Of a stretch of 64,000 nucleotides of DNA, positions 19,768 to 59,805 are shown piece after piece. Position numbers and translations under genes: made by a program. The DNA is from a bacterium. Lineage in GTDB: Bacteria > Patescibacteriota > Minisyncoccia > Phycocordibacterales > UBA6899. How positions within the stretch are numbered: position 1 is the first letter of the stretch; each line of letters begins with the position of its first letter. The stretch spans positions 6,576-70,575 of the forward strand of contig JAYTWK010000015.1 in assembly GCA_043743715.1 (NCBI GenBank), given 5' to 3'. The notes under the pieces were generated by a model. The model made no database searches. It saw nothing but the letters and a program-made list of their open reading frames with translations, and was not told the origin of the DNA.

Positions 19768-19818
19768 ATTTTATGTATTTTTCTACTTACTACTTACTAC
19801 CTACTACTTACTAATATT

Positions 19819-20199
19819 ATGCGTATACTTGGTATTACAGTTCCGGAGAATAAGCAGTTGTGGGTCGGCCTCACCGTGTTTTACGGCATCGGCTTCACTA
19901 CTGCGCGCAAGATTTTAAAGGAAGCGAATGTACCCGAGACGAAGAAGCCGGGAGAAATCTCGACCGACGAAGAGACCAAAATTCGTAAGTCTATTGAAGC
20001 GATGAAGATTGAAGGAGACTTGAAGCGCGAGAAGGCGAGCAACATCAAACGCTTGAAGGATATCAAGTCGTTCCGAGGCACGCGCCACACGAAGGGACTT
20101 CCTTCACGCGGTCAACGTACCAAGACCAACTCACGCACTGTTCGAGGTAATGTGAGAAAGACGATGGGTTCAGGACGGCGCAAACTCGAAAAGAAGTAA
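19819..20199 (+). CDS. rpsM: 30S ribosomal protein S13
   Basis: MRILGITVPENKQLWVGLTVFYGIG... S13 signature. Confidence 0.9.
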   Translation: MRILGITVPENKQLWVGLTVFYGIGFTTARKILKEANVPETKKPGEISTDEETKIRKSIEAMKIEGDLKREKASNIKRLKDIKSFRGTRHTKGLPSRGQRTKTNSRTVRGNVRKTMGSGRRKLEKK

Positions 20200-26854: not shown

Positions 26855-26912
26855 ATTTGAGTTAAGCTTAAATTTACCTAGCTACTATTTCCTAACTACT
26901 ACCCACTGACAT

Positions 26913-27989
26913 ATGGCAAAAAACTATTACGAAGTACTCGGCGTCGAAAAAAAGGCGACCAAGGATGACATCAAAAAGGCATTCCACAAGCTTGCGCACA
27001 AATTCCATCCCGATAAAAAGGGTGGAGATGAGGCGAAGTTTAAGGAAGTGAATGAAGCGTATCAGACACTCTCTGACGAAGGAAAAAGACGCGAATACGA
27101 TACATATGGACAGACGTTCAATGGTGGAGGGGCACCTCCCGGACATGGCCAAGGATTCGGCGGAGCTGGCTTTGGAGGACAAGGATTCGACGGCGTTGAC
27201 CTTGGTGATATCTTCAACGATTTTTTCGGCGGCGGATTTGCTAATCAGGGAGGACAAAGAGTCGAGCGTGGTAGCGATATATCAATTGATATCGAAATCA
27301 CTTTCGTTGAAAGTGTCTATGGTGCCGCCCGTAAAGTGGTCTTGGGAAAGACCGGTGTTTGCGATGTTTGCAGCGGCTCCGGAGCGAAGCCGGGCAGCAA
27401 AATGAAGAAGTGCGCTACCTGTAACGGTAAAGGCAAGGTGACTGAACAGCGTAGATCATTCCTTGGAACCTTCTCGACCGTCACCACTTGTAATGTCTGC
27501 AGCGGCAAAGGCGAGGAGCCGGAAGAAAAGTGTAAGACCTGTGGCGGCTTGGGTATCACCAAGAAGCAAGAAGAGATATCGATTAAAGTCCCTGCGGGTA
27601 TTCAAGACGGGGAGATGATTCGCATGTCGGGGCGCGGCGAAGCGGTTGTGCATGGCATTCCGGGTGACCTGTATGTACGCATTCATGTGAAAACTCATGA
27701 AGTGTTTCATCGCGAGGGTGACAACCTGGTGATGGACCTCGATATCAAACTCACCGACGCACTGCTTGGTGCCAGCTACATGATTAATGACCTTGACGGC
27801 AAGAAACTTGATGTGAAAATCCCCGAAGGAGTGAAGTTTGGTGACATCCTACGACTTAAAGAAAAGGGTGCCCCTACTGCGCGCGGCAGACGTGGTGACA
27901 TTCTCATCAATGTGAACATCAGTATCCCCACAAAACTCTCGAGCAAAGCAAAGAAGCTACTCGCCGAACTTAAGCAAGAAGGGATATAG
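26913..27989 (+). CDS. dnaJ: Molecular chaperone DnaJ
   Basis: J-domain with HPD (KFHPDKK). G/F-rich linker. Four CxxCxGxG zinc-finger repeats. Confidence 0.95.
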   Translation: MAKNYYEVLGVEKKATKDDIKKAFHKLAHKFHPDKKGGDEAKFKEVNEAYQTLSDEGKRREYDTYGQTFNGGGAPPGHGQGFGGAGFGGQGFDGVDLGDIFNDFFGGGFANQGGQRVERGSDISIDIEITFVESVYGAARKVVLGKTGVCDVCSGSGAKPGSKMKKCATCNGKGKVTEQRRSFLGTFSTVTTCNVCSGKGEEPEEKCKTCGGLGITKKQEEISIKVPAGIQDGEMIRMSGRGEAVVHGIPGDLYVRIHVKTHEVFHREGDNLVMDLDIKLTDALLGASYMINDLDGKKLDVKIPEGVKFGDILRLKEKGAPTARGRRGDILINVNISIPTKLSSKAKKLLAELKQEGI

Positions 27990-32149: not shown

Positions 32150-33838
32150 ATGAATGTACTCATTTCTCAATTGCATAGTTCTTCACTCGATCTGATTATT
32201 CTTTTGATTGCACTTGCGATCGATATATTCCTTGCATTCATCGTCTATCTCAGCAATACAAAAAGCGCCACCAACAAGGTGTTCTCACTCCTCACTCTCT
32301 TCATGATGTTCTGGCTCGTGACGACCTATGCGCCGAGGATACCTGAATTACTGCCATACTCACTCCTCCTGCACCGGCTAGGAATATTCTTTGCCGCAGC
32401 AATGAGTGCGCTTTTTTTCCTGCTTGCGCACACAATGCCGGAAGAAAAGATTCAGCTGAAGAAACCCTGGTCCATCGCGTTCTGGATGTCGACGCTCCTG
32501 ATGATGACCCTGAACCTCTCACCATATGCATTCGTCAGCAGCACTATGGTAGACGGAGTGAGCCAGCCTCAGCCGGGCATAGGATTCATTCCATTTGCAT
32601 TTTTTTCGACATTATTCAGCATCCTTACGGTGTATGTCCTAGTTCATAAATATCGGCACTCCTCGGGGCATATCAAGCGCCAGATATGGTTGGTACTTTC
32701 GGGAATAGTCATCATGCTTGCCCTGGTCATTGCGACCATTCTTATTCCAATCATGTTCTTTGACTCACTCCAGTTCCTCTCCTTTGCGCCGCTCTATACA
32801 CTAGTATTCCTCGGCATGACCGCCTATGCCATCACCAAGTACCAACTGTTTGATATCAAAGTACTTGTCACTCAGGCGCTGACGCTCATCCTCTGTCTGA
32901 TACTTTTTGCAAAATTCTTAGGCGAAGGAAACGTCAGCGGCCGCGCTGTCGACGGTCTTCTCCTGTTTGTTGTTTCTATTTTGGGTTTCTTTCTCGTAAA
33001 AAGTGTGCGGAAGGAAGTCGAAGCACGCATTGAGATTCGTTCACTCGCAGACGAGCTCGCAGCAACCAACGTACAGCTTGAAGTCTCAAACGAGCGACTG
33101 CGCATCCTTGATCAGCGCAAGAGTGAATTCGTTTCGATTGCGTCTCATCAGCTGCGTACGCCGGTGACCGCGATGAAAGGATATTCATCACTGTTGCTTG
33201 AAAACGCGTATGGAGCACTGCCGGAGAAGATGAAAGATCCGGTAGAAAAGATATTCCGTTCGTCGGACCGCCTGGCGCTCATGATCAACGACTTCCTGAA
33301 CGTATCGAAGATCGAGCAGGGGTCGATGACCTACGCCTTTGTACCTCTTGATCTTAAGAAGATGGTCATAGACCTCGTGCAAGACTTCCACATCGTGGCT
33401 GGAGAGAAGAAGCTTGATCTTGAAACCGACATTCCTGATGGCGAGAAATTCAATGTAGTCGCGGATGAAGGAAAGATCAGGCAGATTATCTCAAACCTCA
33501 TTGATAACTCTATCAAATACACTCCAAAGGGTAGCGTACGCCTTATCCTTGCGAAAGAGCCGACACACGGCGAGGACGGTATGATACTGCTCCAGATCAA
33601 AGACACCGGTATCGGACTCTCTCAAGATGACATCCACCATCTGTTCGGCAAATTTACCCGCGGGGCAGAGGGCTCGAAAGTGAATACTTCAGGCTCCGGC
33701 CTCGGCCTGTATGTGGCGAAGAAAATGATGGAAGAGCACAAGGGAAATATTTGGGTGGATTCAGAGGGGAAAGGGAAAGGCTCGGTGTTTTGCATAGAAC
33801 TACCTGAGTTTCACAACGAGCTACCGAAGACTCCGTAA
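32150..33838 (+). CDS. Sensor histidine kinase (7-TM N-terminal sensor, coiled coil, HisKA, HATPase_c)
   Basis: H-box SHQLRTPVTAMKGY. G-boxes GSGLGLYVAKKMMEEHKGNIWVDSEGKGKGSVF. Multiple N-terminal TM helices. No response regulator in the window. Confidence 0.85.
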   Translation: MNVLISQLHSSSLDLIILLIALAIDIFLAFIVYLSNTKSATNKVFSLLTLFMMFWLVTTYAPRIPELLPYSLLLHRLGIFFAAAMSALFFLLAHTMPEEKIQLKKPWSIAFWMSTLLMMTLNLSPYAFVSSTMVDGVSQPQPGIGFIPFAFFSTLFSILTVYVLVHKYRHSSGHIKRQIWLVLSGIVIMLALVIATILIPIMFFDSLQFLSFAPLYTLVFLGMTAYAITKYQLFDIKVLVTQALTLILCLILFAKFLGEGNVSGRAVDGLLLFVVSILGFFLVKSVRKEVEARIEIRSLADELAATNVQLEVSNERLRILDQRKSEFVSIASHQLRTPVTAMKGYSSLLLENAYGALPEKMKDPVEKIFRSSDRLALMINDFLNVSKIEQGSMTYAFVPLDLKKMVIDLVQDFHIVAGEKKLDLETDIPDGEKFNVVADEGKIRQIISNLIDNSIKYTPKGSVRLILAKEPTHGEDGMILLQIKDTGIGLSQDDIHHLFGKFTRGAEGSKVNTSGSGLGLYVAKKMMEEHKGNIWVDSEGKGKGSVFCIELPEFHNELPKTP

Positions 33839-33861
33839 CTCTGCTAAAATCGCTCTATTAT
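33833..33861 (+). repeat. Left copy of a 29-nt direct repeat (CCGTAACTCTGCTAAAATCGCTCTATTAT) flanking the AT-rich island
   Basis: 27 of 29 positions identical to 35968-35996. Confidence 0.7.
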
Positions 33862-33882
33862 CAAATATGCCCAAAAAAGAAT

Positions 33883-35908: not shown

Positions 35909-35967
35909 TTTTTCGTGTCTGCCCGATATGACATACGTTTGTAATTGCTGCGTCCTACCAAATACCC

Positions 35968-37055
<1,088 letters not shown>

Positions 37056-38013: not shown

Positions 38014-38049
38014 CTTTGAGGTATTCTTGTATTTTTTTACGTCTTCGCT

Positions 38050-38530
38050 ATACTCATAAGACCTAGGGATTTGGATGAAATACGAGGCAGGGAGAAAGCG
38101 ACGAGGAAGACATATTCCTATATGTTGACCGAGTTGCAGAGGCTCCCTAACAAAGTAGTTCGCCAAATACGTAGGTCTTACGCCTATGACCCGGCAAACA
38201 CCGGAGAGGGTGAGGGAAGAACACCTGATACGTTTCGGGTTAGTAGAGCTCTCCGGAACTGCTCCGACAAGCAGATAATCAAGTTAGCATGCTCTTTAAA
38301 AAACCTATACCCATCTAATCCAAAAATTTCGACTACGACTTTTTGAAAAATGTTCGACATATCTTGATAAGACTCACATTTTTCAATTCGTCTCGTCAGA
38401 AATTTTAGAATTATCTAGGTAAGAGTTTTTTAAGAACATACTTAAACCAGGGTGGCACCGCGACGAAGGAATATTTCCTAGACGCCCCTGCGAATTTATT
38501 CACATGAATGAATTTGGAGGGGCGTTTTTG
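38050..38530 (+). promoter_or_regulatory. T-box riboswitch leader for aspS: stem-I-like hairpin with a GAC (Asp) specifier, a canonical T-box sequence and a terminator
   Basis: AACCAGGGTGGCACCGCG at 38445-38462 matches the T-box consensus AAUUAGGGUGGNACCGCG. The variable N is C, which fits discriminator G73 of tRNA-Asp. Terminator hairpin gacgcccct...aggggcg plus a T-run at 38481-38530. Upstream extended hairpin at 38050-38167 has a GAC in an internal loop. Confidence 0.75.
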
Positions 38531-38560: not shown

Positions 38561-39952
38561 ATGACAAGAACACACATTAAAGATCTGAAGGCGCATATCG
38601 GCGAAGAAGTAACTCTCAAGGGTTGGGTCGATATCCGCCGCGACCAGGGTAAACTCATCTTCATCGACTTCCGTGACATGACAGGCAAGGTGCAGATGGT
38701 CGCGCTACCAATGCACAAAGAGGCCATAGAAGCGGCGAATACCGTACGCCCCGAGTGGGTACTCGAAGTGCAGGGCAAAGTGAATGCTCGCCCAGAGAAG
38801 AATGTGAAAGCGGACGAAGAGAACGGCTCACTCGAAATAGAAGTGCTCGGAATTTCCGTACTTAGCAAAGCGGAGACGCCGCCCCTTGATGTGCGCAGCG
38901 ACGGTATGGAAATAGGTGAAGACGTACGCCTCAAGTACCGCTACCTCGACCTGCGTCGTCCGCGTATGCAGAAGAATATTCGCATGCGACACGACATCGA
39001 ACTCTTCGTACGCAACTTCCTCTCAAATGAAATGTTCACCGAGATAGAGACTCCGCTCTTGTCGAAGTCGACACCTGAAGGATCACGTGATTACTTGGTA
39101 CCAAGCCGTCTTGAGCAAGGCAAGTTCTATGCGCTGCCACAGTCTCCGCAGCAGTATAAGCAGCTGCTGATGGTCGCGGGGTTCGAGCGTTACTTCCAGT
39201 TTGCTCGCTGCATGCGCGACGAGGACACTCGCGGTGATCGTCAACCGGAATTCACCCAACTTGATATGGAAATGAGTTTTGTGGAGAGGGAAGATGTCAT
39301 GGCGCAGAATGAGAAACTGCTGATAGAGCTGGTTCAGAAAGTCGCTCCACATAAAAAGATCCAGCAGATTCCTTTCCCGCGCATGACCTACGCCGAGGCG
39401 ATGGAGAAACACGGAAACGACAAACCCGATATTCGCACCGACAAGAATGATTCTGACCTCTTGGCATTCTGCTGGGTAATTGATTTTCCGTTTTTCGAGA
39501 AAACCGATAAGGGCGGCTGGACCTTTACCCACAATCCTTTTTCTGCCGCAAAACCCGAGCACACTGACATGCTGATGAACAAAGAAAAGATTGGTGATAT
39601 TCTCACTACTCAGTACGATGTAGCGCTGAACGGTTTCGAAATTGGTGGCGGAAGCATCCGCAACCACACACCAGAGGGACTCACCAAGGTATTCGAGATT
39701 ATGGGTCACACTTCTGAAAGTATTAGTGCAAACTTCGGGCACATGCTCGAAGCATTCTCATATGGAGCGCCTCCGCACGGCGGTATTGCCTGGGGACTCG
39801 ACCGCTTGATTGCCATACTACAGAATGAGCCGAATATCCGCGAGGTCATCGCATTTGCCAAGACCGGCGAAGGCAAGGACCTGATGATGGCCGCCCCTTC
39901 GGAAGCATCAGCAGAGCAATTGGTTGAACTCGGCCTGCGAATCGTAAAATAA
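38561..39952 (+). CDS. aspS: Aspartyl-tRNA synthetase (short, archaeal/eukaryal-type). The tracked ORF start at 38504 lies inside the T-box terminator, so the start was reassigned to the ATG at 38561
   Basis: OB-fold N-domain. Class II motifs (FYALPQSPQQYKQLLMV..FERYFQFARCMRDED...QLDMEMSF; GGGSIRNH). Confidence 0.85.
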   Translation: MTRTHIKDLKAHIGEEVTLKGWVDIRRDQGKLIFIDFRDMTGKVQMVALPMHKEAIEAANTVRPEWVLEVQGKVNARPEKNVKADEENGSLEIEVLGISVLSKAETPPLDVRSDGMEIGEDVRLKYRYLDLRRPRMQKNIRMRHDIELFVRNFLSNEMFTEIETPLLSKSTPEGSRDYLVPSRLEQGKFYALPQSPQQYKQLLMVAGFERYFQFARCMRDEDTRGDRQPEFTQLDMEMSFVEREDVMAQNEKLLIELVQKVAPHKKIQQIPFPRMTYAEAMEKHGNDKPDIRTDKNDSDLLAFCWVIDFPFFEKTDKGGWTFTHNPFSAAKPEHTDMLMNKEKIGDILTTQYDVALNGFEIGGGSIRNHTPEGLTKVFEIMGHTSESISANFGHMLEAFSYGAPPHGGIAWGLDRLIAILQNEPNIREVIAFAKTGEGKDLMMAAPSEASAEQLVELGLRIVK

Positions 39953-42848: not shown

Positions 42849-42926
42849 GTATTACAATAAATGTAGGGTCGTGCGGTGATTTTGCATTCACTACCTACTA
42901 CTTACTACCTACTAACTACTAACCTC

Positions 42927-43982
42927 ATGATCACCGATGTACTCAAGATACTCATCCCGTCAGCGGTGGCATTCTTCATCGGCATCCTCATCACTCCGAC
43001 CGTTACAGACTTTCTCTACAAACATAAGATGTGGAAGAAATCGAGTGTGAAGCTGGCGATGGATGGACAAGCGGCAACTATTTCCTCGAAACTGCATAAC
43101 GATGAAGAGCGCAAGACCCCGCGCATGGGCGGCATCATCGTCTGGGGGAGTATCGCTCTTACGACAACGCTCTTTTGGGTGATAGCGCATCTGTTTCCGA
43201 CCACTGAAACAGCAAAACTGAATTTCTTTTCGCGCAATCAGACATGGCTACCGTTTTTCATACTTCTCGCAGGAGCCACATGCGGACTCATCGACGACTA
43301 TCTCGTCTGCAACGACAAGGGCACATACAAAGGCGGAGGCCTTTCGCTCAAGACACGCATACTATTTGTCTCTCTCCTTGGTGCGCTCGGTGCATGGTGG
43401 TTCTACGGGAAACTCGGTGTTGACTACGTGCACATACCGTTCTGGGGTGATCTGCATCTTAGACTCCTCTTTATTCCCGTGTTCATCGTCTTTGTCATCG
43501 GCATCTACTCGGGCGGTATTATCGACGGCGTCGACGGACTTTCAGGCGGCGTATTCGCGATCATTTATGCCGCATACGCGGTCATCGCATTCGCCGGCGG
43601 ACAGATCGATCTTGCGGCGTACTCGGCGGTAGTCGTCGGCGGACTCTTGGCGTTCTTGTGGTTCAACATTCCGCCTGCGCGCTTCTTTAATTCCGAGACC
43701 GGTACCATGGCGCTCACCACCTCACTCGTCATTGTCGCATTCCTTACCAAGGCTGTGGTGCCGCTTCTTATCATCGGATTTCTTCTCATTGCGACCAGCG
43801 CATCGAGCATCATCCAGATACTCTCGAAGAAATATCGAGGAGGGAAGAAAGTCTTTATTGTCGCCCCCTTACACAATCACTTCCAAGCGCTCGGCTGGCC
43901 AAGCTATAAAGTGACTATGCGCTACTGGGTCATCGGCATGATGTTTGCGGTAATTGGCGTCATCGTCGCACTAATCGGGTAA
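42927..43982 (+). CDS. mraY: Phospho-N-acetylmuramoyl-pentapeptide transferase MraY (the tracked start at 42876 would translate the upstream TACTAC repeat)
   Basis: MraY motifs (..MGGIIVWGS.., GIIDGVDGLSGG, ..LIIGFLLI..). Confidence 0.85.
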   Translation: MITDVLKILIPSAVAFFIGILITPTVTDFLYKHKMWKKSSVKLAMDGQAATISSKLHNDEERKTPRMGGIIVWGSIALTTTLFWVIAHLFPTTETAKLNFFSRNQTWLPFFILLAGATCGLIDDYLVCNDKGTYKGGGLSLKTRILFVSLLGALGAWWFYGKLGVDYVHIPFWGDLHLRLLFIPVFIVFVIGIYSGGIIDGVDGLSGGVFAIIYAAYAVIAFAGGQIDLAAYSAVVVGGLLAFLWFNIPPARFFNSETGTMALTTSLVIVAFLTKAVVPLLIIGFLLIATSASSIIQILSKKYRGGKKVFIVAPLHNHFQALGWPSYKVTMRYWVIGMMFAVIGVIVALIG

Positions 43983-44232
43983 CGAGTAATTTTAGCGATC
44001 TGCTTCGTCGCGCGCGCCGAAAACCCCTCCAAAATATATGAATACTCCTCAGGGGTATTCCGACTTCGCTTCTCGCATCTCATCTAAAATAACTTGTTAC
44101 CACCCGGTACAACCCAAAAAGTACTGCTTCGGCATCGCCTCAAATTTGCCTCAAAGCTAGCGCGCTTGCATTCGTCTGAACATTGGGCTCAGGAGCTTCC
44201 ATAAATCAGAAAGTTCGCTATAGTGAATCAAC

Positions 44233-49568: not shown

Positions 49569-49758
49569 ACCACAACATGAACTTTGACCACACACATTAC
49601 CAGACTCACACGCGCAATGATGGAATTTTGGATGCAATGCGGCTTTGTTTTTCGAAGAATGTCGCAGGGGCTGTAGTCGGCTACTGTCACGCGACTTCGC
49701 AGGAAAACAAAGATGCAGTGCGCCGAAATTACGCATTGCGCAGCTAAACAATTACCAC

Positions 49759-56798: not shown

Positions 56799-56869
56799 CG
56801 GGCTATCGGATAGTGGTAGTCTACATGCATGGGGTGCATGTGGCGGCAGTTCGATTCTGCCTAGCCCGA
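56799..56869 (+). tRNA. tRNA-Pro (anticodon GGG), no encoded CCA
   Basis: Manual cloverleaf: acceptor cgggcta/tagcccg (C1:G72, A73). D-stem with two G.U pairs and an AGTGGTA loop. Anticodon stem catgc/gcatg with loop aTGGGgt. T-arm ggcag-TTCGATT-ctgcc. Confidence 0.7.
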
Positions 56870-56905
56870 CAAGTCAACAGTCGCCAAACAAGCAGTTCTA
56901 GCATG

Positions 56906-56960
56906 CAATGGGGTGTCTATATTCATTACTGGGACGGCAGTTCGATTCTGCCTAGCCCGA
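56906..56960 (+). repeat. Duplicated tRNA-Pro 3' portion (anticodon-arm-like segment plus exact T-arm and 3' acceptor strand) with no 5' acceptor strand
   Basis: ggcagttcgattctgcctagcccgac is repeated exactly at 56845-56870 and 56935-56960. Upstream catgcaatggggtg mimics the anticodon arm. No cgggcta 5' partner occurs within 90 nt. Confidence 0.6.
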
Positions 56961-57144
56961 CTGGAAGGAGGTGCTAAGAAAGCGTAGCTTTCGCGGCAGA
57001 ATCGAAAAGCGCAGTCATGTTGAGGCTTTGCGAAACGAACGAGCTGGGGTCGAGAGTACTTAGGATTTTTCCGTGCAAGTAACGGAAAAAGACTTAGTAA
57101 CTCGTGACCGATCTGCTTAATGCCGAAGTTTTGCCAGTATAAAA

Positions 57145-57561
57145 TCACTGCATTTCTTTGCAGGCAGCAGCAGGATGATAGCCTTTCGCGATCGCTTCCT
57201 CGACGCTTGCGAACCAAACTTTATTTGCATCTTTGATGCGTTTTACCCCGCCGCAGGTCGGGAGGTAGTAGGAACGACCCGAGCGAGAACCTACATACAT
57301 TGCTTTCTCTCCCGTCGTCTCCCCTGCCCCAGCCGGGTTATTAGGAGTACTCCTGGCATTTGAAACTGTGGCTGTAGCTTGAGTTATTTTGATGCTTGGG
57401 AGTTTATTTTGCCCTGAATCGCCCTTAGCAATATGATACGCGAGGAAGCCGGAGACTGAAATCAGGCCTATAAATATGAATATAAAGATATCCCGAGGCA
57501 TGTCAGGCAAAGTCTTGACCCCGTTAGAGATCGCGTGCACATAATCTTTACTTTTATTCAT
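57145..57561 (-). CDS. Membrane-anchored protein with a C-terminal Ada-like zinc-binding domain
   Basis: C-terminus YYLPTCGGVKRIKDANKVWFASVEEAIAKGYHPAAACKE matches the Ada metal-binding pattern (..C...KR......F.S..EA...G.RPC..C). N-terminal TM helix. Confidence 0.5.
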   Translation of the reverse strand: MNKSKDYVHAISNGVKTLPDMPRDIFIFIFIGLISVSGFLAYHIAKGDSGQNKLPSIKITQATATVSNARSTPNNPAGAGETTGEKAMYVGSRSGRSYYLPTCGGVKRIKDANKVWFASVEEAIAKGYHPAAACKEMQ

Positions 57562-57683
57562 ATTTTACGCCTTATTTTCAGGTTTTCAGACCAATACCAT
57601 TTGTTTTCCACATTTGCATGCGCACTATCTCTAACGGGGTTGATTTTATCGCTCATATCTGTTACTCTCATGTGACGCTTCTT

Positions 57684-57810
57684 CAGAGAACCTGAGGAAA
57701 CGAATGAAATACGAGGCATGGAGAAAATGATGAGGAAAGCATATTCCTATATGTTGACCGAATCATAGAGGCTCCATAACGAAGTAGTTCGTCGTTTGCG
57801 CAGGTTCTCT
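57684..57810 (+). ncRNA. Second copy of the aspS-leader stem-I-like structured RNA core, upstream of rpmA, with no T-box antiterminator or terminator
   Basis: About 86-nt core that is roughly 85% identical to 38065-38150. Three helices covary between the two copies (see findings). Confidence 0.5.
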
Positions 57811-57838
57811 ACGGGTATACTACGAGTAATATAACAAT

Positions 57839-58114
57839 ATGGCAACAAAAAAATCAGGAGGTTCAACAAAAAATAACCGAGACTCACAACCAAAGTATCT
57901 TGGCACCAAGCTTCATGACGGCCAGAAAGTATTTGTCGGCAACGTCATCGTGCGCCAGCGTGGCACCAAAGTCACCGCAGGTGCACATGTGAAAGTCGGA
58001 AAGGATCACACACTTTACGCACACAAGGCAGGCAAGATTGTCTTCAAGACCATCCGCAAGACCCGCTTCGACGGCAAAGTCGTCATCCGTAAGCAAGTCT
58101 CTGTCGCTCTGTAA
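57839..58114 (+). CDS. rpmA: 50S ribosomal protein L27
   Basis: ...[38 protein letters not shown]... Confidence 0.9.
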
Positions 58115-58380: not shown

Positions 58381-58943
58381 ATGTATATACATGTATATAC
58401 ATCGAATTTGTCTGGCAATCACAAATCCAATATGACATTTCTCAACGAGAAAGACTGTTGTGATTACGAAACCCAACCATTTACTAACTCCGCTGATAGG
58501 CAAAGTTAGTAAATATCACCCCACTGTCTTAACAAACCTCCAAGTCCACTCTGTTCCATATCCAAGCACAGCCCTTGGATATGCTTGATTAAGATTACTA
58601 TTTATTGAGCACTCCCCCCTCGCTAAAACCCTGTGCCAAAGAATCCTAGCAATGGTAAATTGACTGCTTCGATTACAACACGAAAATCTGTTTTTTGGAG
58701 GGTCTGACCCCTATTCCTCAGTTCTACGGCTTAACCACAAGCTGGAATGGTCAAATTAAGCCACGATTTTTGTATATTATGCCCCAAAATAAGACCACTC
58801 ACATCAATGAGTGGTCTTATAAAAACTTTCAGATTTAGATGCAATGCGAAGTCCTGGACGGAGGCTGTATTTGAGAAGCTGCACTAGAGTACTGCTTCCA
58901 AACCCGTCGAAGGAAGGACAAGCAGAGCGCCAAATGTGGAAGT

Positions 58944-59387
58944 TTACTCAGCTTCGATGATGACTTTGAACTTCGCAGTCTTCTCTCCCACCTTCGCATC
59001 AACCTCAAATTCTCCGAGCTGTTTGAGTGGCTTCTCAAGATCGATGTGTGCCGACTCGATTGCTGCGCCGATGGCCTTGCCGAGCGCCTCCGCGAGATCG
59101 TGCTGGGTGACGCCTGCATAGAGGTGACCCTCTTCGTTGGCTGCACGCTTGACGATGACAATCGTGTCAGAAACGCCGTCGAGCGCCTTCTGGAGCACAT
59201 CGTGCTGCTTCTTTGCCTCACTCTCACGCTTCTTGGCGAGCTCTGCGACGCGTCGAGCTGACGACTTGGTGACCATCTCTCCTAAGCTCCTGGCAATAAT
59301 GAAATTACGCGCATAGCCCGGAGCGACATCGACGATTTCATACTTCTTGCCGACGTTCTTCACATCGGAAGTTAAAATAACCTGCAT
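58944..59387 (-). CDS. rplI: 50S ribosomal protein L9
   Basis: MQVILTSDVKNVGKKYEIVDVAPGYARNFII... Confidence 0.9.
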   Translation of the reverse strand: MQVILTSDVKNVGKKYEIVDVAPGYARNFIIARSLGEMVTKSSARRVAELAKKRESEAKKQHDVLQKALDGVSDTIVIVKRAANEEGHLYAGVTQHDLAEALGKAIGAAIESAHIDLEKPLKQLGEFEVDAKVGEKTAKFKVIIEAE

Positions 59388-59805
59388 AACGTAATACGTA
59401 TTTAGTTCGTATAAGACATCCTTCGAAACACGAAAGTCGATATTCGGCGCATTGCTTCGTTATCGATTTCACAAGGTCTCGGAGCAGTAGTTTTATCTAC
59501 AGCCCACTTCGACACTTGCTCATCGATGCCTCGCACTGCATCCAAATCTCGACTTTCTTGAGACTTTCTTAGGTAAATGAGTATGACGAGTACCCAACTG
59601 CGTGAGGCCTAGTATACCTATATTATAGAAAATGGCAATACAATGCTGTTGAAAGCTAAGAAAAAGGGGCTCCTTTCGGGCCCCTGTGGTTGACTGTTGG
59701 ACTGACTTTTCCGTGCGTACCGATACGCCCCTCTTTCAAGGTGGCGACGGCAATAAATATACTAAGAAAAAGACCGCCTTGAGTCAAGCTGCCTTTTCTT
59801 TTGGT

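Follow-up and report, generated by a model that had tools for sequence, protein, structure and literature searches.

A conserved hairpin ahead of rpmA in a CPR genome belongs to a dispersed and possibly mobile repeat family

In a 64-kb window of bacterial DNA, by which we mean the whole stretch that was analysed, the gene for ribosomal protein L27, rpmA, is preceded by a long hairpin (copy B), and another copy of the same hairpin (copy A) stands in front of aspS (Table 1). The L27 homologs put the organism in the Parcubacteria/Paceibacterota part of the CPR, near Lloydbacteria. Upstream of copy B we infer an rpmA promoter (its window copy is not flagged by a consensus promoter scan) that would place the transcription start about 10 nt before the hairpin. 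The L27 mRNA would then start with a structure of −54 kcal/mol, followed by a spacer without a Shine-Dalgarno sequence; this spacer measures 27 nt to the ATG at 57839, where the original prediction had given about 50 nt. A further promoter-like sequence (TTGCCA-17-TAGTAT, 57817-57845, minus strand) overlaps the rpmA start and reads the other way, through the complementary strand of hairpin B and into the divergent gene; were it genuine, the hairpin region would be common to the 5′ leaders of the two divergent mRNAs, which would overlap there. The divergent gene is itself interrupted, its 5′ part being split (ORFs 57558-57719 and 57145-57561) by a separate 123-nt palindromic insert at 57518-57640 that has 22-nt arms (ACCCCGTTAGAGATCGCGTGCA, 3 mismatches) and no other copy in the window. 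Its ortholog in the closest relative found (L001, L27 96% identical) is a single 125-aa ORF.

Table 1. Features of the window that bear on the hairpin family (R1 and R2, covariance models, R2 being the broader one; bits, model score).
Feature	Position	Strand	Evidence or context
Hairpin copy A	38057-38180	+	5′ end of aspS T-box leader; R2 110.6 bits
Candidate for the T-box's own short stem I (UAUGA, then CCGG-CAAACA-CCGG)	38182-38209	+	Rfam T-box alignment on L019; identical in window
Possible degenerate member, inside palindrome 38283-38444	38312-38417	-	R2 27 bits, E 7e-5, with filters off only
T-box sequence AACCAGGGUGGCACCGCG (38445-38462), antiterminator, terminator (38483-38529)	38445-38529	+	upstream of aspS
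aspS	38561-39952	+	T-box leader 38049-38529 upstream
Member with 3′ end over stop codon of convergent glycosyltransferase gene (42876-43982)	43978-44101	-	R2 66.6 bits; ORFs, Pfam
Member between two plus-strand genes, sense	49613-49740	+	R2 44.7 bits
Inferred rpmA promoter TTGATT-N17-TACTCT	57640-57668	+	TTGATT-N17-TAnnnT kept in L001, L002, L003, L006
Hairpin copy B	57684-57811	+	inferred rpmA 5′ leader; fold z −8.6; R2 105 bits (57686-57809)
rpmA (L27)	57839-58114	+	ORF; PF01016 homologs
Member between rplI stop and its terminator, antisense to rplI, end overlapping TAA stop	58821-58947	+	R2 41.6 bits
Divergent member upstream of rplI, sense to rplI	59430-59559	-	R1 52 bits, R2 83 bits

Copies A and B make up the longest direct repeat of the window, in which 38054-38176 matches 57683-57805 over 123 nt with 78% identity. 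Two words, the 22-mer CATATTCCTATATGTTGACCGA and the 15-mer ATGAAATACGAGGCA, are shared by the copies and found nowhere else in the window; shuffles expect 0.00 and 0.22 occurrences, respectively. The repeat had been described at first as a recurring 86-nt core; the recurrence is real, but the quoted coordinates were off by about 10 nt, position 38075 being the counterpart of 57704 (offset 19629). On the plus strand, both copies fold into the same rod, with −53.9 kcal/mol for A and −54.1 kcal/mol for B and z-scores of −7.5 and −8.6, none of 200 shuffles being equally stable. The minus strands reach only −39 and −42 kcal/mol, a difference of about 13–15 kcal/mol. Folding and alignment of the two copies confirmed the outer, closing, second and third helices and the compensatory changes reported for them. 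In contrast, the innermost pairing, proposed to be AGGAA with UUCCU, has to be replaced by GG/CC plus ACAUAU/AUAUGU; other copies covary with the latter and break the former. The copies encode no peptide, as had been stated: the candidate frame MKYEA... stops after 8–20 codons and is not conserved, and its third codon varies between Y, F, C and S like a base-paired position. The view that the copies represent a conserved folded structure rather than a decaying duplicate is supported by the fold, by the compensatory changes and by the homologous copies described below.

The original prediction recognised two copies, whereas the window contains at least six. A covariance model built from six copies, in which 25 of 43 pairs showed compensatory changes, located divergent copies both within the window and in related genomes, and the broader model R2 finds six clear copies plus one weak copy in the 64 kb, about one per 10 kb. 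The orientation of the six clear copies is mixed (+, −, +, +, +, − along the window) and thus not replication-polarised. For the copy upstream of rplI, the fold amounts to −58.2 kcal/mol as compared to −42.2 kcal/mol for the reverse strand. Beyond the window, a strict subfamily pattern derived from three copies had 0 matches in species genomes and matched eight metagenome loci; two of the eight are chance matches, and the remainder represent two further distinct true sequences, one of which lies between ftsA and ftsZ, antisense to both. We then scanned one genome per species for a basal motif (GAUGnnnUnCGAGGC ... AACrAAGnAnnnCG), which yielded at least 120 genome loci, with about 10 expected by chance as estimated from the information content of the pattern. 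Nearly all of these matches fold into the same rod. In 100 of the at least 120 loci, the covariance model gave 119 matches, 19 of which had not been selected by the search pattern. Among the 80 matches listed, about 47 belong to the CPR (Nomura-, Kaiser-, Lloyd-, Wolfe-, Zambryskii-, Campbell- and Taylorbacteria, Saccharibacteria, Peribacteria, Paceibacterota) and about 27 to other phyla (Burkholderiaceae/Burkholderiales, Dechloromonas, Methylophilus, Neisseria, Gammaproteobacteria, Coxiellaceae, Bdellovibrio-like bacteria, Bacteroidales, Clostridia); some of the non-CPR matches may be mis-binned, while those at the Burkholderiaceae isc operon and the Neisseria NmsRb sRNA locus are genuine. 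A lack of further copies, combined with a recent segmental duplication of the two copies and their flanks, had been named at the outset as the observation that would speak against a functional structure, and because the covariance-model search of the genome and its relatives found further copies in other genomes, this objection does not hold.

Copies can also be tandem or clustered, with two to three of them within 0.5–1 kb (L097:4788-5238, L065:5209-5460, L067:1240-1489, L037:3798-4743). In Lloydbacteria, one family member (L147/L148/L149:349-477, minus strand) lies between rpsO and a gene for an NYN-domain protein, sense to both. Three patterns gave 0 family matches in 2.9 million viral contigs, where the single pattern match was due to chance, and the family was not found among PLSDB plasmids or by blastn against 5,426 E. 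coli genomes. A phage or plasmid vehicle was rejected on the basis of the viral contigs and PLSDB, neither of which contained a true match. In Rfam 15, including the self-cleaving ribozymes, no family reaches threshold on copies A and B, neither hairpin having a relevant match even at E≤10, and 11 other loci gave no match at E≤0.1. A full-text search of the literature found no description of the hairpin family, which is apparently undescribed.

The window also contains several other repeats. Beyond a tRNA-Pro(GGG) gene (56799-56870), after a gap of 60 nt, the 3′ end of this gene is repeated over 32 nt with 94% identity (56930-56961), which could be the scar of an integrative element. A G-poor, CU/A-rich leader of 39 nt (CTACTTACTACTTACTACCTACTA...ATG) stands directly before start codons at 19783-19821, 26878-26916 and 42891-42929 and may serve as a Shine-Dalgarno-independent translation leader. 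Finally, a 44-nt repeat with 86% identity is found at 33821-33864 and 35955-35998; it could provide both places with a common promoter or leader, and its second copy extends as far as the start codon of trpS.

At copy A, the hairpin occupies the 5′ end of a genuine T-box leader and precedes its antiterminator; both copies contain UUGACC, and the hairpin is long, irregular and of about stem-I size. Copy B had been proposed to be a stand-alone T-box stem I that binds tRNA-Asp via its GAC and serves as a sensor or decoy in L27 expression, or else a remnant of a T-box. We consider either version very improbable. The Rfam T-box model (RF00230) matches 38346-38492 in the window (17.7 bits) and 129-288 of locus L019 (16.8 bits), whose AspRS is 95% identical, and the hairpin lies outside both matches. 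In the more compact leader of L019, the stem I of the model is a separate element directly 3′ of the hairpin: a K-turn-like AUGA is followed by the short hairpin CCGG-CAAACA-CCGG, a stem II with AGUA/GAA and an F-box-like CUCCGACA. Because the score is 17 bits against a gathering score of 93, the assignment of the short hairpin next to copy A as the T-box's own stem I is provisional. For copy B, there was no relevant Rfam match, including to the T-box, at E≤10, and no intrinsic terminator was predicted, in line with the earlier statement that it has neither antiterminator nor terminator. Indeed, these downstream parts are present only at copy A and absent at copy B and at more than 100 other copies, which adjoin unrelated genes.

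The fold of the family likewise differs from stem I in every defining feature examined. A specifier loop sits near the base of stem I and has an S-turn, with the codon on its 3′ side and a purine next to it. Here, GAC is instead found high up, in the upper third, within UGAC(C/U)(G/A)A, where GA contributes to tandem purine mismatches and C(C/U) forms base pairs with (G/A)G, so that the triplet is partly paired. The 2-bp helix holding its C covaries (CG 46–55, GC 22–27, UA/AU), the base after GAC is C or U, and the triplet is not conserved among 119 family members. The apex is a plain stem of 5–7 bp (yGUAy/rUACr) with a variable loop of 3–7 nt and has no AG bulge or distal-loop platform, and the base of the rod consists of Watson-Crick helices (UGAA/UUCG, UAC/GUA) and a 1x1 purine mismatch, with no K-turn. 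The distribution of the hairpin also speaks against a stem I: the closest relatives have no element at rpmA, and relatives with 84–92% identical AspRS have neither a T-box nor the hairpin. Annotators should be aware that such hairpins can pass for riboswitch or leader domains.

The aspS leader has some peculiarities of its own. The T-box leader was found only here and in L019, and in the relatives with 84–92% identical AspRS the spacers are 13–97 nt long. It resembles the 'ultrashort stem I' type, with an Rfam score of only 17–18 bits. The terminal loop CAAACA displays AAC-A, an Asn codon plus purine, instead of GAC, and UGGC fits a G discriminator, which hints at tRNA-Asn sensing by a non-discriminating AspRS. 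A TATACT box is located just upstream of the start of copy A. Between the F-box-like hairpin and the antiterminator, an AT-rich palindrome of about 160 nt (38283-38444) has been inserted, which is absent in L019 and yields spurious miRNA matches.

At rpmA itself, the hairpin is an occasional feature. The spacer upstream of rpmA is 42 nt long and free of the element in L001, and no element is present at this position in L002, L005 and L006-L009 either (spacers of 42–44 nt). An orthologous copy with a similar terminal helix (GAGAAYCUG) occupies the site in L003/L004, whose L27 is identical to that of L002; L003 has 133 nt where L002 has 8 nt, and the flanks are 88–92% identical. A leader specific to L27 was rejected, as close relatives are without the element upstream of rpmA. 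In a broader version of this idea, L27 or another ribosomal protein would bind the hairpin as an rRNA mimic and regulate its own operon, and copies do occur near rpmA, rplI, rplL, rpsJ, rplB, rplE, rplF and rpsP, in both orientations overall. However, besides the lack of conservation at rpmA, most of the copies associated with ribosomal proteins are antisense and follow a stop codon, and there are many non-ribosomal neighbours too. Ribosomal-protein neighbours are expected by chance, since CPR genomes consist largely of housekeeping genes, and we give autoregulation of this kind hardly any credence. At rpmA, the hairpin would have at most a generic influence on mRNA stability or translation and would sense neither a tRNA nor L27. 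The lead of L27 being controlled by an orphan T-box stem I can be dropped.

Conservation of the structure becomes evident when the family is aligned. Among 119 members, 91.3% of the cells are paired (shuffles, 59.5%; slid partners, about 36%), and both sides have changed in 40 of 43 pairs. Two features stand out: a purine-rich internal loop (5′ ..CrAGGC.. / 3′ ..AAC-r-AAG.., in short AGGC / AAC.AAG.A) and the apex GAG-yGUAy..rUACr-yGA (GAG-GUAC..GUAC-UGA). Both persist in the 19 matches that lie outside the selection by the search pattern. Within the loop, AAC is near-invariant (116–117 of 119 members), unpaired and without a GTT partner. The terminal helix, in contrast to this core, is variable across the family (consensus uARRAYUU..AARUYYUa), and two to three inner helices covary. 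Orthologous copies stay paired through many double changes (A versus L019:11-133, B versus L003, 58821 versus L005), suggesting that the constraint acts in situ and not only on a master copy. The unpaired purines conserved across phyla, the strong covariation and this compensatory evolution at orthologous sites are all points in favour of a functional RNA family that is maintained by the host, be it a cis-acting UTR element, an antisense, processing or stability element, a protein-binding RNA or a new ribozyme, and that has been spread by duplication and kept by function. Its retention in streamlined CPR genomes, even within ribosomal-protein operons, points the same way. We regard such an RNA as a possible, though less than likely, explanation.

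Arguing against a host function, the hairpin is dispensable, with the same site being empty in genomes that are about 90% identical. The 3′ site of rplI, for example, is filled in the window and in L005 (L005:1641-1768) and empty in L002 and L003. The window junction at this site reads GAG-TA|element|TA-AGACC and fits a TA duplication at the TAA stop codon. In two Burkholderiaceae MAGs, copies that are 98–99% identical to each other occur at many loci and are flanked by TA, TAA or TAG, and in the Burkholderiaceae isc operon copies directly follow the iscS and iscA stop codons. A TA duplication fits the rplI site and most Burkholderiaceae junctions, many CPR copies being without clear TA flanks, and it is clear at only a few junctions. 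In the CPR, the copies are old, their pairwise identities having a median of 44%. Further neighbours include genes for an ABC transporter and DEAD helicases as well as def, infC, clpP, ftsZ, rpoD, gyrB, recR, nusG and isc genes. These and the ribosomal-protein genes form an unselected sample of housekeeping functions with no gene specificity. A tie to any gene function, as might be expected of a functional RNA, is not seen, and host transcripts carry the element in either orientation. The loci examined revealed neither a transposase nor any other mobilising gene. About 1 Mb of locus DNA contained no split element halves around an ORF, the arrangement by which an autonomous parent element would be recognised.

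The position of the hairpin relative to genes is non-random. In 54 of 132 copies (41%), a long convergent ORF terminates no more than 6 nt from the 3′ end of the element (stop codons TAA 27, TAG 22, TGA 5), whereas a co-directional stop codon at the 5′ end is seen in 4 of 132 copies; random positions give 2%. Sense copies are located a few tens of nucleotides upstream of start codons. Moreover, the same strand folds better regardless of gene orientation, and G.U outnumbers A.C by about 3:1 on this one strand, whatever strand the mRNA carries. In the 49 copies whose neighbouring mRNA carries the other strand, there are 86 G.U as compared to 29 A.C, counted in a model-fitted alignment that leans towards G.U. 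Both the placement relative to start and stop codons and the strand-specific folding preference would suit a functional RNA, but the better-folding strand is often not the mRNA strand. The RNA interpretation is further weakened by the absence of a match in Rfam, including all known self-cleaving ribozymes, and by the flanks, which exhibit no fixed −10 box upstream and no U-tract downstream.

Two specific kinds of RNA were tried and rejected. An independent sRNA gene with its own promoter does not fit, as −10-like hexamers show no positional enrichment upstream of the copies. An intrinsic or polar terminator is excluded as well: U-tracts are not enriched in the flanks on either strand, a true terminator follows the rplI copy, and antisense copies reside within ribosomal-protein operons and hence are not polar terminators.

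The strand specificity and the abutment to stop codons would both be explained if the hairpin were a recombination or transposition site folded from single-stranded DNA, either attC-like or IS200/REP-like, and handled by a tyrosine or HUH enzyme. The hairpin shares several traits with integron attC sites: it falls in their size class (57–141 nt), is conserved in structure and not in sequence, and lies directly against the stop codon of the preceding ORF, to which its better-folding strand is antisense. The near-invariant AAC and two Xer-like genes that carry the element at their stop codon could be added in support. However, the AAC is unpaired within an internal loop and has no GTT partner, the ends do not conform to RYYYAAC/GTTRRRY, and R″/R′ boxes, cassette arrays and intI are missing from the hairpin family. 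Copies are instead scattered among core genes, and their orientation in the window is mixed. The Xer association is not conserved either. Two of the three Xer-like recombinase genes in the examined DNA adjoin an element, with the xerD 3′ site being filled in L056 and L065, but it is empty in L147-L157, which represent four further XerD protein clusters from at least four genomes, and a link to this recombinase was rejected. Overall, we consider a single-stranded DNA site of this type improbable.

We thus favour, with some reservation, the interpretation of copy B as a MITE-like, non-autonomous, non-coding dispersed hairpin of about 125 nt that is a passenger in the rpmA 5′ leader. This reading is based on the multiple copies, the filled and empty orthologous sites, the occurrence in several phyla, the tandem copies and the lack of gene specificity. 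The element is or was mobile under such a scenario and would insert at TA, very often within a TAA or TAG stop codon that is regenerated in the process. The conserved loops could represent a recognition feature for some mobilising enzyme or host factor acting on the folded single strand, and after insertion the element would be carried passively in neighbouring transcripts. Several points do not sit well with a MITE. Judged from the alignment, variation is found in the terminal helix, which would be the TIR, and conservation in the asymmetric internal loops, a pattern opposite to that of a typical MITE of a DDE transposase, and the core is conserved across phyla, unlike in ordinary MITEs. Furthermore, no mobilising gene was found, the CPR copies are old and show compensatory evolution in situ, and clear TA duplications are few. 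The abutment of stop codons to the 3′ end and the one-strand excess of G.U are left unaccounted for by the MITE-like interpretation.

Among known systems, the nearest kind is that of the ERIC-type repeats of enterobacteria, which form hairpins, end in TA and are associated with a TA target duplication (PMC2759123). ERIC elements (also IRU or RU-1) and related MITE-like repeats of enterobacteria measure 127–168 bp as compared to about 125 nt here, and share with the hairpin family a long imperfect hairpin without coding capacity, an intergenic and co-transcribed location, TA ends, presence or absence at orthologous sites and an occasional fusion to gene 3′ ends. The two have no sequence similarity (no family match by blastn in the E. 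coli genomes), and they differ in that ERIC is limited to Enterobacteria and Vibrio, whereas the hairpin family spans CPR, Proteobacteria, Bacteroidota and Clostridia and has a variable terminal helix together with conserved asymmetric internal loops. We know of no description of an end-specific abutment to stop codons for ERIC. Correia elements (NEMIS/CREE) and the RUP elements of pneumococcus are TA-flanked inverted repeats of 100–155 bp that give rise to hairpins within mRNAs and do not encode a transposase, and the Correia TIRs (TATAGTGGATTAA..) have a conserved sequence. In Neisseria, the copy of the hairpin family (L082:6339-6461) has other ends than these TIRs, and no Correia element is present at this locus. 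REP and REPIN-RAYT systems are similar to the hairpin family: their extragenic palindromes are abundant, fold in single-stranded form and persist over long times by vertical inheritance. In contrast, REPs measure only 20–40 nt and share a conserved GTAG, and REPINs consist of two such units on either side of a RAYT gene, whereas the hairpin family forms a single rod of 125 nt with no conserved GTAG, and no RAYT gene was seen at the loci examined.

We tentatively raise the possibility that the family constitutes an undescribed class of strand-specific structured element, either a mobile hairpin that some enzyme handles as a folded single-stranded nucleic acid, in an attC- or REPIN-like manner but with a new core, or a functional RNA (antisense, processing or catalytic) that has colonised gene ends, with conservation from CPR to Proteobacteria. 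If this is true, the docking of the 3′ end on stop codons would reflect a new mechanism of insertion or selection. CPR genomes are among the most streamlined known, yet the window holds about one such hairpin per 10 kb, and relatives harbour them even within ribosomal-protein operons. The family therefore offers a handle on how small elements spread and persist in reduced genomes, on the recognition of purine loops and on stop-codon docking. Cultivable representatives exist for both Saccharibacteria and Neisseria, and the copies found in these groups, together with the recent bursts in Burkholderiaceae, make these questions testable.
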